Positions 1 through 51,452 of a stretch of DNA of 64,000 nt are shown piece after piece (position 1 is the first letter of the stretch; every line of letters starts with the position of its first letter). A program made the position numbers and the translations under genes. The DNA comes from an uncultured bacterium (GTDB lineage: Bacteria > Oederibacteriota > PGYV01 > CAWJRG01). The DNA is taken from positions 352,001 through 416,000 of the forward strand of contig CAWJRG010000009.1 in the NCBI GenBank assembly GCA_963845185.1. The letters are read 5' to 3'. The notes under the pieces are model-generated. The model ran no database searches. It was not told the origin of the DNA and saw only the letters and a list, made by a program, of their open reading frames with translations.

Positions 1-355
1 GGTTGACGTTGTAGTGTGCGACGGATTTGTAGGCAACGCGATTTTAAAGCTTGCCGAGGGGATAGCGGATTTGATAGTAAATATGTTAAAAAATAGTATT
101 AAAAATTTAAGCTTACGGGGTATGCTGGGAGCTCTGCTTCTAAAGCCGGTTTTTAGCGAGTTGAAAAAGAAGGTAAGCTATGACGAGTATGGAGGAGCGC
201 CGCTGCTTGGCGTAAAAAAACCGGTGATAATAACACACGGCAGCGCCACGGCCAAGGCAATAAAAAATTCAATTAAAGTAGCGGCTCAGTTCATCAGGCG
301 CCATATAAACGAAGAAATAGAACAGAAAATAAAAGAATACGGGGTGATTGAATGA
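1..355 (+). CDS. plsX: Phosphate acyltransferase PlsX, C-terminal part (5' truncated by window)
   Basis: VVCDGFVGN, YGGAPLLGV and HGS motifs; directly upstream of fabH. Confidence 0.93.
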   Translation, partial: VDVVVCDGFVGNAILKLAEGIADLIVNMLKNSIKNLSLRGMLGALLLKPVFSELKKKVSYDEYGGAPLLGVKKPVIITHGSATAKAIKNSIKVAAQFIRRHINEEIEQKIKEYGVIE

Positions 356-1338
356 TAAAAAAGGCTGCAATACTTGGCATAGGATATTATGTGCCTGAAA
401 AGATTCTTACCAATTTTGACCTAGAGAAAATCATGGATACAACTGACGAGTGGATATTCCGCCGTACAGGAATAAAAGAGCGGCATATATCGGCAAAAGA
501 CGAGCCGACTTCGGAACTGGCGGTCAGAGCAGCTGAAAAAGCTTTAAAAAACGCAGGCATCGAAAAGGAAGATATTGATTTAGTAATAATGGGAACATTA
601 ACTGGCGATTATGTCTGGCCGGCCACAGCCAATATAGTTGTCGATAAGATGGGTATAAACGGCGTGCCTTCCTTTGACATATCAGCCGCATGCTCAGCTT
701 TTGTTTACGGGTTGTCTATAGCAAAGGCATTTGTAGAGTCCGGTATTTATAAAAATATCCTACTTATTGCGGCTGATGAATTTGCGAAAGTCGCTGACTG
801 GAACGACAGGTCTACATGCGTACTTTTTGGAGACGGTGCAGGCGCGGCAATAATAGGCGAAAGCAGGAAAGACGGCGGAGAAATAATGTCCACTTACATC
901 GCTTCCGACGGCACAAAACTTCTATATCTTTTTCAACCTGGTGGCGGGACTGTTCACCAGTTCACGCAGGAGGTTCTTGATAAAAAAATGCAATTTTTGC
1001 AGATGAACGGCAAGGAAGTTTTTAAATCGGCTGTGGTTAAAATGCCGGAGGCCATGGAAAAAGCGATGCAAATAGCCGGAGTGACAGCCGAACAGATAGA
1101 TTATTTTATTTTTCATCAGGCGAATAAAAGGATAGTAGATGCCGTAGTAGAAAGGCTTAAATTAAACGAGAATAAAGTTATAATTAATATCCAGAAGTAC
1201 GCTAATACATCCGCTGCCACCATCCCCATAGCGATTGCCGAGGCAATCGAGCAGGGTAAAATAAAAAAAGGCCATCTTCTTGGTTTTTCAGCTTTAGGAG
1301 CAGGATTTACATGGGGAGCAGCTGTAGTAAGACTATAA
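352..1338 (+). CDS. fabH: 3-oxoacyl-ACP synthase III
   Basis: DISAACSAF catalytic Cys, LFGDGAGA, FHQAN, NTSAA motifs. Confidence 0.96.
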   Translation: MIKKAAILGIGYYVPEKILTNFDLEKIMDTTDEWIFRRTGIKERHISAKDEPTSELAVRAAEKALKNAGIEKEDIDLVIMGTLTGDYVWPATANIVVDKMGINGVPSFDISAACSAFVYGLSIAKAFVESGIYKNILLIAADEFAKVADWNDRSTCVLFGDGAGAAIIGESRKDGGEIMSTYIASDGTKLLYLFQPGGGTVHQFTQEVLDKKMQFLQMNGKEVFKSAVVKMPEAMEKAMQIAGVTAEQIDYFIFHQANKRIVDAVVERLKLNENKVIINIQKYANTSAATIPIAIAEAIEQGKIKKGHLLGFSALGAGFTWGAAVVRL

Positions 1339-1395
1339 TCTATTTGTTAAACATAATTTGAGGTTTTTCCAGATTGATAAAATAAATAATATCTA

Positions 1396-1492
1396 ATACC
1401 GCTTGTCCTCGGTATAGATACTTCGGACTTGAGCAGGTATAAAATAGCATAATATTTTGTCGTCGACTTTGGCTTGACAAAATAAACGCTAT
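1396..1492 (+). ncRNA. Candidate structured two-hairpin intergenic element, copy 1 (homologous to 50536-50634)
   Basis: Hairpin 1: ATACC-GCTT-GTCC...GGAC-TT-GAGC-A-GGTAT. Hairpin 2: ATAGC..TATTTTGTC...GACAAAATA..GCTAT. The second copy shows compensatory changes. Confidence 0.55.
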
Positions 1493-1506
1493 CTAAGGAG
1501 GCAATA

Positions 1507-2442
1507 ATGTCATTAGCGCTGGTATTTCCCGGCCAGGGCGCGCAGTCAGTAGGCATGGGAATTGAATTCTATGAAACAAATGAAAAGGCAAAGGCAATAT
1601 TTGAACAGGCAGATTTAATTCTGCGGGGGTCTCTTTCAATCAGCCTGAAACAAGTAATGTTTAAAGGGCCAGAAGAGGAATTAAAAAAAACAGATTATAC
1701 CCAGCCTGCGATTTTTACAATAAGTTGCGCAATATTTGAATCCTTTAAAGATAAATTTTCAGGCAAAGTATTCTTTACTGCTGGGCATTCGCTGGGTGAA
1801 TACAGCGCATTATACGCTGCAGGAGCCTTTGATTTTGAAACAGGAATCAAGCTCGTTAGCCGAAGAGGTGAATTGATGCAGGAAGCATCGGTCAAAAATA
1901 AGGGATCCATGGCAGCGGTACTCGGACTTGAAAAAGACCAGATATTAGCGTTATGCGAAAAAGTAAAATCTATAGGGTATATGGCGCCGGCAAATTTTAA
2001 CTCTCCGGGACAAATTGTGGTATCTGGCGATACTGCGGCAATAGAAGCCGGAGAAGCAATAGCAAAAGAACTCGGTGCAAAAAGATACATCAAACTTGCA
2101 GTGGCAGGAGCGTTTCATTCAAATCACATGCAAGCAGCAGCGGACGCTTTCGCAATGGAAGTGGACAGATATGATATAAAAGATATCAAAATTCCAGTGA
2201 TATCTAATTTTTACGCAAAAGAAGTCAGCAAAAAGGAAGAAATTAAGGACGCGTTAATAAAACAAATAACAGGATCGGTAAGGTGGATCGAAAGTACGGA
2301 ATACATGAAATCAAAAGGCGTTGATACTTTTATTGAACTTGGTCCTGGCACGGTGCTTTCGGGGCTTATAAAAAAGATTGACAAGAATTTAAAAGTATAT
2401 AACATAGAAAAGCCGACAGATGAGGCAAAGATAGTTTTATAA
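1507..2442 (+). CDS. fabD: Malonyl-CoA:ACP transacylase
   Basis: FPGQGAQ, GHSLGEY, GAFHS, ELGPG motifs; AAGGAGG RBS. Confidence 0.97.
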   Translation: MSLALVFPGQGAQSVGMGIEFYETNEKAKAIFEQADLILRGSLSISLKQVMFKGPEEELKKTDYTQPAIFTISCAIFESFKDKFSGKVFFTAGHSLGEYSALYAAGAFDFETGIKLVSRRGELMQEASVKNKGSMAAVLGLEKDQILALCEKVKSIGYMAPANFNSPGQIVVSGDTAAIEAGEAIAKELGAKRYIKLAVAGAFHSNHMQAAADAFAMEVDRYDIKDIKIPVISNFYAKEVSKKEEIKDALIKQITGSVRWIESTEYMKSKGVDTFIELGPGTVLSGLIKKIDKNLKVYNIEKPTDEAKIVL

Positions 2443-11012: not shown

Positions 11013-12047
11013 ATGCATTATGTCGGAGTTGATCTTCACAAAGAACAGTCATGGTTTTACGTTTCAGATCATGAAGGCAAAAGACTTATCAGTAAGAGTA
11101 TATCAAATTCGGAAGAGGAATTGAAACGGATATTTGAAATGATCCCAAAGCCATTCAAGTTGGGAGTAGAGGCCACAAGAAACTGGTACTTTTTTGTTGA
11201 TTTAGCCGAGCTTTATGCGGAAGAAGTCAATCTCGCGAATTCTTTCGAGCTCAAGGCTTTTGCAAAACGAAATAAGAAAACCGACAAGATAGACGCAAAA
11301 CTAATTTGCGATGTTCTGCGAATGGGTTTTCTTCCGAAAGTCAACATACCGCCAAAGCCCATAAGAGAAATACGTGAATTAATAAAATATAGAATGTCCC
11401 TTGTGTATGAGCGAACTTATAATATCAACAGGCTCAAAAATACGATGGGAAAACTAGGGCACGAATGTTGCAGCGATCTTACAAGATATAAACACTTAGA
11501 CAAAGTACAGACGGAGGAATTACCGGAGATATATAAAACTGTTATTAAAGGGCATCAAGAAAGGATTAGATTTTTAACTGAAAAAATTAATAGTATGAAA
11601 TTGTATCTCAAAGAAACGTTTGAAAATGACCCTGATATTAAGAACCTGATTACAATACCAGGCTTGAGTTATCTAAGCGCGGCAATAGTAAAGAGCGAGA
11701 TGATAGATGTAGCAAATTTTGCATCTTTTAACCGCCTTTGTTCCTTTGCCGGACTAGCTCCGCGAGTGAGCCGGAGTGCTAAAAAAGATATACACGGGCC
11801 TTTAAGCAGAAACAGGCGTAAATTACTTCAGTGGATATTGTTGGAAATAGTTCCTCATTATGTTAGAGCCTCAGAGGAAAAGAAAGCAAGATTCGATGAA
11901 ATAGTTAAAAGAAAAAGTTATAATACGGCAAAAGTTGTATTGGCCAGGGATCTTTTAAAGGTAATATATAATGTGCTACGAGATAAAAGAGAATATTATA
12001 GAAATACAATTCGGTCAACGGCGGGTGTCGCGCTCCACGGTGTCTGA
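11013..12047 (+). CDS. IS110-family DEDD recombinase/transposase
   Basis: VGVDLHK, GVEAT, KTDKIDA (DEDD RuvC domain); C-terminal FAGLAPRVSRSAK with the conserved Ser. Confidence 0.96.
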   Translation: MHYVGVDLHKEQSWFYVSDHEGKRLISKSISNSEEELKRIFEMIPKPFKLGVEATRNWYFFVDLAELYAEEVNLANSFELKAFAKRNKKTDKIDAKLICDVLRMGFLPKVNIPPKPIREIRELIKYRMSLVYERTYNINRLKNTMGKLGHECCSDLTRYKHLDKVQTEELPEIYKTVIKGHQERIRFLTEKINSMKLYLKETFENDPDIKNLITIPGLSYLSAAIVKSEMIDVANFASFNRLCSFAGLAPRVSRSAKKDIHGPLSRNRRKLLQWILLEIVPHYVRASEEKKARFDEIVKRKSYNTAKVVLARDLLKVIYNVLRDKREYYRNTIRSTAGVALHGV

Positions 12048-48908: not shown

Positions 48909-50531
48909 ATGAAAATAAATAAATTATATATTATTTTAAGCCTTTCAACAGCGGTAATGCTGATATTCAGCTTCCCGAACTTTATTGAATACGGCATAAA
49001 ATACCACACCTGGTTTTTCGCGTGGTTTGCTTTTGTGCCTTTATTTGTCGTGATGATAAAAGCTGAAAATAAAGAACAGGCTTTTTTATACGGGTTCATA
49101 ACGGGCAGTGTTTTTTATCTCGGATCGCTTTACTGGCTGTGTTTTGTAAGGATTATGGGGATATTTGCATATATATGCTGGCTCGCGCTTTCGCTTTATA
49201 TTGCCCTGTTTATAGCTTTAAGCGTAATGCTGGGGAGATACCTGAAAGACAAATTAAACATTGGCTATTTGCTCTGCGTGCCTTTGATATTTACCGTGCT
49301 TGATTTTGTACGCGAATGGCTTTTTTCCGGGTTTCCGCTACTTACCATAGCGCAGAGCCAGCAAAGCTTTGCTTACGCGCTGCAGCTGCTTAAATTTACA
49401 GGCGTGCATGGGTTGAATTTCCTGATAATTTCTTCCAATATCTTAATTACCCTTTTAATATGCAGGATAATACCGGTTCATCAAAAATCCCAGCTTGACG
49501 CAGGAGCGGGAGATACCATTCCGGTTACGCAGGAACCTCAACCCGGTGCAGGGGCGGGCAACTTCACAAAGGCAGAAAATATCGCGTGGCTGGCAATAAC
49601 CCTGCTGCTTTTGGTTATGATGTATACGGCAAACACAAACAAAAAGGAAAATTTTCAGCCAATTAAAACAGCATTACTGCAGTCAAATATGGACCAGAAC
49701 GTGGAATGGAACAAAGATTATAAAATTACCACGATGGATTTATATAAACAGCTTGTCCTGAGCGTGGTAAACAGCAGGCCGGCACTTTTTATATGGTCGG
49801 AAACGGCATATCCCGGCGCGCTTAACATGGAGCCTGAAGGGGCAAAAACAATAAGCGGCTGGGTTAAAGGTTATGAGGCTTTTAATGTTGTCGGTTCAGA
49901 CTGTGTTTTGTCAAACCAAGGCGAATACAGGTATTATAACAGCGCATTTTTGATTTCACCCAAAGGGGCAATCCTGGGGGATTACAGCAAATATCACCTC
50001 GTGCCTTTAGGGGAATATGTACCTTTCAGTGATGTATTTCCAATTATCAGGAAAGTTATAAGGCGTTACGGCTATGAAAGCTTCAGCCCGGGCAAAAAAA
50101 TCGCGCCGTTGTCAATGGACGGCAAGTATTTCGGCGTGCTAATATGCTATGACAGCCTGTTCCCGGAAATCAGCAGGGATTTTGTGAAAAAAGGCGCGGA
50201 ATTCCTGGTACATTTATCCTATGAAACTTGGTACGGAAAAACACCTGCATCGGCGCAGATTTTCACAAATACGGCGTTAAGGGCAGTTGAAAACGACGTT
50301 TGGATAGCACGGTGCGTGGAATCAGGCATATCGGGCATAGTTGACAACAGGGGGACGATAGTTCTTTCCACCAAGTTATTCGAGCGCATTTCAATTGCAG
50401 GGGATATTTTTATAAAGCGTGATAAATCCAGGAGTTGTTACACGGCCTGCGGCGACTGGTTCATATATGTACTACTTCTTGTTTTGGCGTTGGCCGTAAT
50501 TTTAAGGATTAAAGAAAAGAGAAAATTATAA
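48909..50531 (+). CDS. lnt: Apolipoprotein N-acyltransferase
   Basis: WSETA (E), YSKYHLVPLGEYVP (K), LICYD (C) nitrilase triad; TM N-terminus. Confidence 0.93.
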   Translation: MKINKLYIILSLSTAVMLIFSFPNFIEYGIKYHTWFFAWFAFVPLFVVMIKAENKEQAFLYGFITGSVFYLGSLYWLCFVRIMGIFAYICWLALSLYIALFIALSVMLGRYLKDKLNIGYLLCVPLIFTVLDFVREWLFSGFPLLTIAQSQQSFAYALQLLKFTGVHGLNFLIISSNILITLLICRIIPVHQKSQLDAGAGDTIPVTQEPQPGAGAGNFTKAENIAWLAITLLLLVMMYTANTNKKENFQPIKTALLQSNMDQNVEWNKDYKITTMDLYKQLVLSVVNSRPALFIWSETAYPGALNMEPEGAKTISGWVKGYEAFNVVGSDCVLSNQGEYRYYNSAFLISPKGAILGDYSKYHLVPLGEYVPFSDVFPIIRKVIRRYGYESFSPGKKIAPLSMDGKYFGVLICYDSLFPEISRDFVKKGAEFLVHLSYETWYGKTPASAQIFTNTALRAVENDVWIARCVESGISGIVDNRGTIVLSTKLFERISIAGDIFIKRDKSRSCYTACGDWFIYVLLLVLALAVILRIKEKRKL

Positions 50532-50535
50532 GCAT

Positions 50536-50634
50536 TACAGCTTGTTTTCGGTAAAAGCCTCAGACTTGAGCGGGTATAAGCAAGAGTAATATTTTTGCCG
50601 AGCCTATTGATGACTTGCAAAAATAAACTCTTGC
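50536..50634 (+). ncRNA. Candidate structured two-hairpin intergenic element, copy 2 (homologous to 1396-1492)
   Basis: TACAGCTTGTTT-TC-GGT..GCC-TC-AGAC-TT-GAGCGGGTA; GCAAGAGT..TATTTTTGC...GCAAAAATA..ACTCTTGC. Confidence 0.55.
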
Positions 50635-50663
50635 AATAATTTTAACGGAGGATAATTTTTTTA

Positions 50664-51452
50664 GTGAAAAAACCATATATTGTAATATCGAACGACGACG
50701 GCATCAATGCCAAAGGATTTAAAGAGTTATACAGCGCAATCCCAGATGGATGCGAAATACTCGCAATAGCCCCAAGTAATGAAAGAAGCGGGGCATCCCA
50801 CAGCGTGACGCTTGACAAGCCCCTGACAGCAGAAATAGTAAAATTTCTTTATATTCATGCTTACAAAGTTAATGGGACGCCGACTGACTGCGTAAAACTG
50901 GCGCTTGCGAATTTCATAAAACGCGTGCCTGACCTCGTGGTATCGGGAATAAACCACGGGCCGAATACCGCTAGCAACATCATCTATTCCGGCACTATAG
51001 GCGCGGCAGCCGAAGCGGCTTTCCTTGGAATACCGGCGCTTGCTTTTTCCCTATACAGCTATGACGAAGACGCGGATTTTACATTTGCAAAAAAAATAAT
51101 AAGAAACACCATAAAAAAGGTCCTGAAAAAGGAAATCAAAATAAAAAAATACGGCCTTCTTAACGTCAACATCCCATACGTGAAAGAAAATAAAATAAAG
51201 GGTATTAAAATACTTCCCTTGGGAAAATATTTTTACAATGAAAAATATAGGTGCAAAGGCAAGGGCAATAAAAGGGAATATTTCCTGTTTTCCGAAGGCA
51301 GGAAAATACAAAGCAACAAAACAGGCATGACCGACGCGCATGCCATTGAAAAAGGCTTTGTCACCATGACTCCACTGCACTTTGACATGACGGATTACGG
51401 GTTCTTGAAAGAGTTAAGGAATAAAACCGCGCACGGCATAATTTCCGAATGA
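50664..51452 (+). CDS. surE: 5'/3'-nucleotidase SurE
   Basis: SNDDG, GTPTDCV, VVSGINHGPN, YSGT. Confidence 0.95.
   Translation: MKKPYIVISNDDGINAKGFKELYSAIPDGCEILAIAPSNERSGASHSVTLDKPLTAEIVKFLYIHAYKVNGTPTDCVKLALANFIKRVPDLVVSGINHGPNTASNIIYSGTIGAAAEAAFLGIPALAFSLYSYDEDADFTFAKKIIRNTIKKVLKKEIKIKKYGLLNVNIPYVKENKIKGIKILPLGKYFYNEKYRCKGKGNKREYFLFSEGRKIQSNKTGMTDAHAIEKGFVTMTPLHFDMTDYGFLKELRNKTAHGIISE

Follow-up and report, generated by a model that had tools for sequence, protein, structure and literature searches.

What is the sequence with two predicted hairpins that lies between fabH and fabD in this genome, and what does its second occurrence, 49 kb away and in front of another gene, reveal about its nature? 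The window analysed here is a 64,000-nt stretch (C9:352001-416000) of a 3.50-Mb genome, G000, assembled in 11 contigs and 99.4% complete. An earlier note on this DNA had described the two occurrences as a two-copy motif with compensatory differences in the stems, and had considered a new cis-regulatory RNA, an element for processing or protein binding, or a structured dispersed repeat. Our results favour the repeat, and they also show an unusual relation to ribosome-binding sites.

The element was searched with R1, a covariance model built from 22 copies (alignment A3). With filters off, R1 finds exactly two copies in the whole window. The relevant features are as follows.

352-1338, plus strand: fabH, upstream of copy 1 (open reading frame; Pfam ACP_syn_III and ACP_syn_III_C)
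1339-1396, plus strand: spacer 5′ of copy 1, the last ~30 nt of which resemble a decayed 3′ half of hairpin 2 (aligned with this hairpin in three copies)
1397-1493, plus strand: two-hairpin repeat, copy 1, between fabH and fabD (R1 match)
1396-1440, plus strand: hairpin 1 of copy 1, whose conserved arms are interrupted by a UU bulge, a UC/UC loop and a one-against-two internal loop (minimum free energy fold)
1444-1492, plus strand: hairpin 2 of copy 1, made up of an 8-bp outer and a 9-bp inner stem, separated by an AA/A internal loop and capped by a variable tip (fold)
1495-1501, plus strand: Shine-Dalgarno site AAGGAGG of fabD, 1 nt after copy 1 (sequence reading)
1507-2442, plus strand: fabD, malonyl-CoA:ACP transacylase, downstream of copy 1 (open reading frame; Pfam Acyl_transf_1, E 6.5e-37)
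48909-50531, plus strand: lnt, apolipoprotein N-acyltransferase, upstream of copy 2 (open reading frame; Pfam LNT_N and CN_hydrolase)
50536-50634, plus strand: copy 2, in the lnt-surE spacer, with hairpin 1 at 50536-50576 and hairpin 2 at 50580-50634 (R1 match and fold)
50647-50651, plus strand: GGAGG, the Shine-Dalgarno site of surE, 12 nt past copy 2 (sequence reading)
50664-51452, plus strand: surE, downstream of copy 2, with a GTG start (open reading frame; Pfam SurE, E 5.6e-59)

Copy 1 scores 87.0 bits over model positions 1-97 and copy 2 scores 86.7 bits, whereas the third-ranked match in the window reaches 14.9 bits (E 0.26). The alignment of the two copies, flanks included, has a mean column identity of 80% over 149 columns. 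Minimum free energy folding of the plus strands gives two hairpins for each copy (-30.4 kcal/mol, z -3.4 for copy 1; -30.0 kcal/mol, z -2.5 for copy 2). Both these folds and the R1 matches bear out the aligned copies and the compensatory stem differences that had been claimed. A 17-nt core sequence occurs twice in the window against 0.39 expected occurrences. Copy 2 starts 4 nt past the lnt stop codon. The statement that both copies end just before a ribosome-binding site is accurate for copy 1, which is separated from it by 1 nt, and too generous for copy 2, which ends 12 nt before its GGAGG. The last ~30 nt of the 58-nt spacer upstream of copy 1 are probably the remnant of an older unit. No sigma-70-like promoter was found on the plus strand of either copy, and a search for intrinsic terminators (a GC-rich hairpin followed by a U-tract) returned 0 sites in 1250-1600 and 50400-50750.

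The description as a two-copy motif does not survive a search of the complete assembly, in which the family comprises about 170 copies. R1 gives at least 149 matches at E ≤ 0.01, among the best 150 of 1953 candidates scored. A profile search with nhmmer yields 173 matches, 112 of them near full length and 61 partial, and the 17-nt core with up to two mismatches occurs 90 times versus twice for a reversed control. The search of this and related genomes with a covariance model thus produced many further homologues with covarying stems, and the structured dispersed repeat, one of the options of the earlier note, is what these copies (at least 149, without a known Rfam family) represent. Some units are arranged in tandem arrays, the longest with seven units and a 100-nt period. 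This array (C9:916535-917175, minus strand) consists of nearly identical units at an exact 100-nt period and ends in another conserved sequence, which is also present at C5:198905. Elsewhere the copies have diverged: 106 full copies share 66.5% pairwise identity on average, their nearest non-local neighbour is at a median of 87.5%, and only 4 of the 106 have a non-local neighbour at 95% identity or more. By these identities, the copies are old.

A second repeat of ~75 nt, a GGGTAG...CTACCC hairpin followed by a perfect palindrome, was also noticed in this genome, with at least 34 copies and none in the window (examples at C9:112343(+), C5:311452(-) and C5:280232(-)). Most of its copies lie inside or against the two-hairpin element: 17 are in the hairpin 2 tip, and others are in the 5′ arm of hairpin 1 or just past hairpin 2. 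At C8:30820-31120 (plus strand), an element copy with a nested mini-repeat stands directly before a gene whose N-terminus resembles Cas2 by eye.

Outside this genome, R1 detects the element within the order in 12 of the 23 other genomes, in five of nine families and with at least 1-15 copies each; 17 genomes that represent other orders of the phylum gave no match. When 185,579 species genomes were scanned for an exact pattern, 22 loci were returned. R1 confirms 11 of them at E ≤ 5.6e-06, seven in metagenome-assembled genomes titled candidate division FCPU426 and four in two further assemblies whose titles name no phylum; of the remaining loci, one is marginal (E 0.0093) and 10 are singletons in unrelated phyla without an R1 match. 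The family is lineage-restricted, belonging to candidate division FCPU426 (‘Goldbacteria’). Viral contigs yielded no element. Carriage by phages was rejected, since the lone viral pattern match scores only 8.9 bits with R1 and is not an element.

The secondary structure was examined in 61 matches (57 distinct rows) from this genome and its relatives, aligned to R1; the values that follow are to be read with the caveats that the alignment was fitted to the model and that the copies are kin. Standard pairs make up 94.2% of the stem cells in the 57 distinct rows. Changes on both sides are observed in 22 of 27 pairs, and in 15 of the 16 pairs of the hairpin 2 helix. The covariation score is 0.431 versus 0.131 for shuffled alignments (0 of 500 reach the observed value) and 0.04-0.06 when the partners are slid. 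The 3′ arm of hairpin 1 behaves differently: it is invariant or nearly so in the 22 copies, including the unpaired UU bulge, and its conservation extends across families. Rare changes are found in 3.2% of stem versus 5.4% of loop positions, and those in stems are mostly compensated; this comparison is weak because single-linkage clustering lumped 86 of the 106 copies, which makes the ‘private mutation’ counts suggestive only.

Which strand carries the structure is less evident. The argument that G-U pairs favour a plus-strand RNA holds for the raw counts, 71 G-U versus 17 A-C cells, and loses most of its weight once it is recognised that 47 of the G-U cells come from one conserved U-G pair, leaving 24 versus 17. 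The minus strands of both copies fold as well as the plus strands, and for this reason folding energy is uninformative on strand.

A compact covarying structure with conserved unpaired bases could suggest a structured RNA of a known class, for instance a riboswitch or a self-cleaving ribozyme. The comparison with Rfam speaks against such an assignment. At gathering thresholds, Rfam 15 has 0 matches in the whole window, and the terminator search described above found no U-tract terminator at the two copies; the earlier statement that no known riboswitch, ribozyme or terminator could be recognised is upheld. Permissive searches of the two copy regions gave only chance hits, the best at 16.4 and 24.9 bits against gathering thresholds of 43 and 74, and the best hits overall are chance matches to snoRNA and miRNA models at 15-25 bits against thresholds of 37-87. 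Furthermore, about 170 copies before unrelated genes fit a ligand sensor poorly, and the ribosome-binding site is not sequestered. We regard a known RNA class as hardly credible.

The position of the copies is more telling. Among copies with an intact 3′ end, 95 of 136 stand in a fixed register with the next gene, defined by a Shine-Dalgarno site 0-4 nt away and a start codon 12-17 nt away with an open reading frame of at least 60 aa, versus 3 of 153 in an antisense control read from the 5′ end. Many of the remaining 41 copies precede another unit of the element. Between co-directional reading frames, 136 copies are sense and 9 antisense (crude map, frames of at least 120 aa). The gap to the upstream reading frame varies between 0 and more than 400 nt, and 31 of 128 copies are found within 40 nt of that frame. 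As the upstream gap is broad and the spacing to the ribosome-binding site is fixed, the anchor is the downstream ribosome site and not the upstream stop codon. In a sample of 23 copies, the genes that follow are unrelated in function according to Pfam, four of them without a match. They include those for FabD, SurE, a Mur ligase, PFK, SecG and ArgG as well as ribosomal protein L3, glycerol kinase, a response regulator and a transposase. No element was found downstream of the single 16S rRNA gene of the genome, and an origin next to the 16S rRNA 3′ end was rejected on this ground.

These placements could be those of a functional cis-acting RNA leader, in which a global RNA-binding protein or RNase would bind hairpin 1, with hairpin 2 placing this module at the foot of the ribosome-binding site. 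About 95 genes would then share a post-transcriptional control or a protected 5′ end, and mobility would have assembled the regulon. The strong sense bias and the fixed spacing to the ribosome site are in line with this idea, as are the nearly invariant 3′ arm of hairpin 1, unpaired bases included and across families, and the retention of pairing in 94% of stem cells by copies that are only 66.5% identical. In addition, the copies whose upstream stop codon is within 40 nt lie, by this proximity, inside operon transcripts. On the other hand, the downstream genes share nothing, and the strand support from wobble pairs is weak without the one conserved pair. The predicted unpaired probability from the ribosome-binding site to the start codon is unchanged, at 0.51 (n=87) versus 0.49 for other genes (n=248; p=0.15). 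This equal accessibility also led us to reject the idea of a ribosome-site insulator. The orientation is of limited help: 77 of 83 copies follow the region with respect to replication and 75 of 83 follow the gene, and the eight copies that are informative between the two are divided into three that follow the gene and five that follow the region. In this genome, the orientation of the copies and the replication-linked gene strand bias cannot be told apart.

The fabH-fabD site itself can be compared with its counterparts. FabD is found in all 24 genomes of the order. In the region upstream of fabD the element is present in 0 of 21 same-order relatives, each of which has its own GGAG-type site, and R1, applied to 20 of these loci and to L070, gives no match in the fabH-fabD spacer. 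The latter, a metagenome contig, is the closest relative found (FabD 79% identical). Its fabH-fabD spacer measures 28 nt and contains the identical TAAGGAG at the same 6-nt distance from the ATG, without the element. Since the same site at the same spacing exists in the element-free L070, the fabD ribosome site is ancestral and the element was added directly 5′ of it. The element is thus not a conserved leader of fabD and seems to be a gain, with L070 as the single truly close empty site. The sites are not conserved between families either, which further weakens the functional-leader explanation. One gene preceded by the element in the relative G001 has a homologue in this genome (32% identical) without a copy, and another such gene of G001 was not found here. 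A dedicated cis-regulation of fabD and surE finds no support: the downstream genes are unrelated, the fabD site is empty in relatives and the accessibility of the ribosome-binding sites is ordinary.

In relatives, a second mode of placement is observed. Twenty copies from G014, G023, G019, G003 and G001 were sampled with a crude map of reading frames of at least 70 aa. The downstream frame is on the opposite strand for 17 of these, and 14 are antisense between co-directional frames. Only one, in G001, abuts a Shine-Dalgarno site, as does a second G001 copy outside the sample. Typically, the end of hairpin 2 is followed within ~13 nt by a GC-rich hairpin with an A-run that is mostly on the element's side. 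One and the same script flags terminator-like hairpins with an A or T run behind 13 of 23 of the relatives' copies and behind 7 of 136 here; several more of the relatives' copies have such hairpins by eye, the script having absorbed their A/T runs into the stem. One of the relatives' copies abuts the 3′ end of a tRNA gene. Short arrays of apparently hairpin-2-like units only, after a conserved GC-rich stretch, were also seen at L036 and L038 (G003 and G021).

With an A-run on the element's side and a position at the 3′ end of a convergent gene, the hairpin is to be read as the terminator of that gene. The alternative is that the copies are stand-alone small RNA genes which became fused to mRNA leaders in this genome, and some details of the second mode recall such genes: strong hairpins follow within ~13 nt, several with U-runs on the same strand, and AT-rich -10-like boxes precede copies that are antisense to both neighbours. 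Most of these hairpins nevertheless belong, by the side of the A-run, to the convergent gene. Moreover, with a -10 box that ends 1-2 nt ahead of the element, transcription would begin within the basal stem, which covaries, neither copy in the window has a promoter or terminator, and terminator-like sites after copies of this genome are as scarce as stated above. We therefore judge small RNA genes to be very improbable. The second mode also tells against the functional leader, as its copies are antisense to both neighbours and abut terminators. Likewise, it limits a test suggested earlier, in which random orientation relative to genes would mark a DNA repeat. Orientation is indeed non-random in this genome but is reversed in other families of the order, and because of this reversal it is unable to settle RNA versus DNA.

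One second-mode site is orthologous between genomes. An antisense copy at the fabG stop codon, in the fabG-acpP spacer, is shared by five genomes from three genera and two families; the present genome is without a copy in this spacer.

L047, L049, L050, L051 and L040 (genomes G017, G019, G009, G021 and G016, respectively): antisense copies at the fabG locus

These five copies keep the fold, and 8 of their 33 pairs have changed on both sides; such compensatory changes between orthologous copies are among the points in favour of a functional leader. The maintenance of the structure despite the age of the copies, together with the fabG-locus orthologues, suggests selection on structure, i.e. a function. 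Structure retention, the invariant unpaired bases of hairpin 1 and the fabG-locus copies keep an RNA-level function alive as a tentative option. Weighing both sides, the functional leader is a serious explanation that we nevertheless hold to be somewhat unlikely.

Common to both modes is that the end of hairpin 2 faces a purine-rich tract, TAAGGAG in this genome and A-runs followed by GG in the relatives. From these sequences, the constant feature across modes is the purine-rich tract at the hairpin-2 end and not the transcriptional context.

Direct repeats at the ends are not a feature of the family: over 96 copies the mean longest match is 3.08 versus 2.91 ± 0.11 in shuffled pairings, and flank matches of at least 6 nt occur at six copies versus 3.0 expected. 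A 7-nt flank repeat of copy 1 was considered as a target-site duplication and dismissed, as it is no family feature and is explained by the decayed upstream unit. Terminal inverted repeats are also lacking; the 5′ end of the consensus and the reverse-complemented 3′ end, read directly from A3, are dissimilar. With neither target-site duplication nor terminal inverted repeats, a MITE derived from a DDE transposon was rejected. Nor do the two copies of the window look like parts of an integron attC or cassette array, as they sit among housekeeping genes, in the clusters plsX-fabH-fabD-fabG-acpP-fabF and lnt-surE.

The absence of terminal inverted and direct repeats, and hairpins with conserved mismatches, are compatible with a non-autonomous single-strand-DNA transposon of the REP/RAYT or IS200/IS605-derived type. 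A Y1 (HUH) transposase would then recognise the hairpins in their DNA form, and insertion would take place beside a short target word. The opposite-strand flank at hairpin 2 is a pyrimidine-rich word ending in TTWG in both modes, the second small repeat with its GTAG-type hairpin lands inside elements, and Y1 genes are common in the order (14 of 23 relatives). Several findings are difficult to reconcile with this proposal. Despite about 170 copies, the Y1 transposase domain PF01797 has 0 matches in the 99.4% complete genome, in a search whose control was positive in 6 of 14 known genomes, and no TnpB was found in the genome. Y1 presence does not track the element: it is recorded in 8 of 12 element-bearing versus 7 of 11 element-free relatives. 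R1 with filters off detects no element within 1.5 kb of six Y1 genes of relatives (best 16.5 bits, E 0.03). The ends of single-strand-DNA transposons carry hairpins similar to each other, whereas the two hairpins of the element are unlike each other. Finally, orientation to genes, and presumably to replication, flips between families. Taken together, we consider such a transposon improbable. Multi-copy Y1 (IS200-like) domains, at the N-terminus of unusually long frames of ~320-345 aa, are found in G001, G014, G019, G021, G013 and G007 (e.g. L135-L140).

Other mobile elements were examined in turn. The IS110 family has seven matches in the genome, and its four-copy member targets a CTCTCCC...GGGAGAG palindrome; as its copies use a different target, IS110 was rejected as mobiliser. 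Within the window, one of the seven matches, an IS110-family transposase domain (PF01548, E 2.4e-23) distinct from the four-copy member, is located at 11022-11447 on the plus strand (C9:363022-363447). An IS5-like transposase gene behind one copy is single-copy in the genome and was set aside. Reverse transcriptase was likewise dismissed as mobiliser, since just 2 of the order's 24 genomes contain it and one of these two is without the element.

A group II intron is present in this genome in seven copies, at C1:269894(-), C9:699945(+), C9:813074(-), C9:846914(-), C10:385218(-), C10:831397(+) and C11:63444(-). Six reverse transcriptase matches have identical scores, and two intron copies follow a two-hairpin element. 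Every copy is immediately preceded by a ribosome-binding site, a short spacer and ATGA, beyond which the sequences are unrelated, so that the intron seems to home to translation-start-like sites. The element is not a fragment of it: the nhmmer profile of the element has no match on the seven intron copies, there is no Rfam intron match in the window, and an origin from a group II intron was rejected.

We favour, with a probability of roughly 55%, a lineage-specific, once-mobile structured repeat that lands beside purine tracts and is passive in the leaders of fabD and surE. We infer from the observations above that the element was mobile, is co-transcribed and is nearly neutral. A non-coding family of ~97 nt would have been spread through the genome by a target-selective mechanism, by which the hairpin-2 end came to lie beside a purine-rich tract. 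The tract is the Shine-Dalgarno site of a co-directional gene in the present genome, as it is in one other family, and elsewhere it is the A-run side of a convergent gene's terminator. Copy 1 would have been inserted directly 5′ of the pre-existing ribosome-binding site of fabD, behind the remnant of an older unit, and copy 2 would fill the lnt-surE spacer. Both are probably transcribed within polycistronic mRNAs. As two stable local hairpins that leave the ribosome site free, the copies would be tolerated. An effect on host genes, such as a protected 5′ end after processing or a site for a double-strand RNase, would be secondary and is conjectural.

A more far-reaching view, which we consider quite unlikely, is that of a portable RNA/DNA module placed by a translation signal (the Shine-Dalgarno register) or a termination signal (the second mode), through a novel target-guided integration or as the regulon of a factor that binds hairpin 1. 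If true, it would mean a transposase-independent or yet-unrecognised form of integration, or about 95 mRNAs (3-4% of genes) acting as one post-transcriptional regulon. Considering the group II intron at ribosome-binding site plus ATGA and the mini-repeat that homes into the element, translation-start regions may be an arena for mobile RNA and DNA in this genome.

Gene ends and scattered positions in spacers are the usual locations of small dispersed repeats. A structured repeat in the register of the ribosome-binding site at about 95 unrelated genes, even inside core operons such as fab and rplC, is unusual. It implies a precise targeting mechanism or a large hidden post-transcriptional layer, in a candidate phylum without cultured members. 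There is also a practical consequence. The copies inflate intergenic ‘conserved structure’ signals and should therefore be masked as one family in genome scans of the lineage.

As far as the accessible portions of the literature on Goldbacteria, FCPU426 or Goldiibacteriota and on Shine-Dalgarno-adjacent intergenic repeats show, the element is undescribed; no description of it was found there. In the one genomic paper among those listed for the lineage (PMC7031533), the words intergenic, hairpin, UTR and non-coding are absent. Among described systems, REP2 of Neisseria appears, by its description, to be the closest analogue. According to the sections of the source available to us, REP2 measures 120-150 bp, is present in ~26 copies and brings its own promoter, ribosome-binding site and ATG (Delihas 2011, PMC3184786); the IR-A/IR-B repeats of Borrelia plasmids are said there to resemble it. 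So far as these sections go, both REP2 and the present element are dispersed and intergenic, form two internal stem-loops, are without terminal inverted repeats and stand beside a ribosome-binding site directly upstream of genes. Unlike REP2 as outlined there, the element is 97 nt long, has about 170 copies and no promoter that we could find, its ribosome-binding site pre-exists at the empty site, and the genes it precedes are unrelated.

Correia, ERIC and BOX are transcribed, structured intergenic repeats, and Correia and bcr1 have terminal inverted repeats or duplicated targets. Like all four of these, the element belongs to a size class of ~100-150 nt, occurs in dozens to hundreds of copies, forms stable RNA folds, is probably co-transcribed with its neighbours and is patchy between relatives. 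None of the four is known for a fixed register with the ribosome-binding site. The element differs from Correia and bcr1 in that its ends are not duplicated and that its 3′ end is 0-4 nt from a Shine-Dalgarno site in the 95 of 136 copies. In the same partly consulted source, bcr1 of the Bacillus cereus group is reported to form two independent stem-loops (PMC3184786).

With REP/BIME-RAYT and IS200/IS605-derived elements it shares hairpins, the lack of inverted termini and target duplications, and an orientation beside a short word; the preference of REP/BIME for gene ends and terminators recalls the second mode. Unlike REP/RAYT and IS200/IS605-derived elements, it has no Y1 gene in this genome and none associated in relatives, and its two hairpins are dissimilar.

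The placement before start codons has a parallel in the TAACTGA heptamer repeats of marine Beggiatoaceae. In the portions of MacGregor (2015, PMC4679880) accessible to us, about 170 sets per genome are described, mostly a few nt before start codons, in front of unrelated genes including those of ribosomal proteins, in patchy lineages and with no known spreading mechanism, and the repeats are proposed to be sites for single-strand-binding proteins. Compared with these short, unstructured tandem heptamers, as they are described there, the element presented here is a 97-nt covarying unit of two hairpins.
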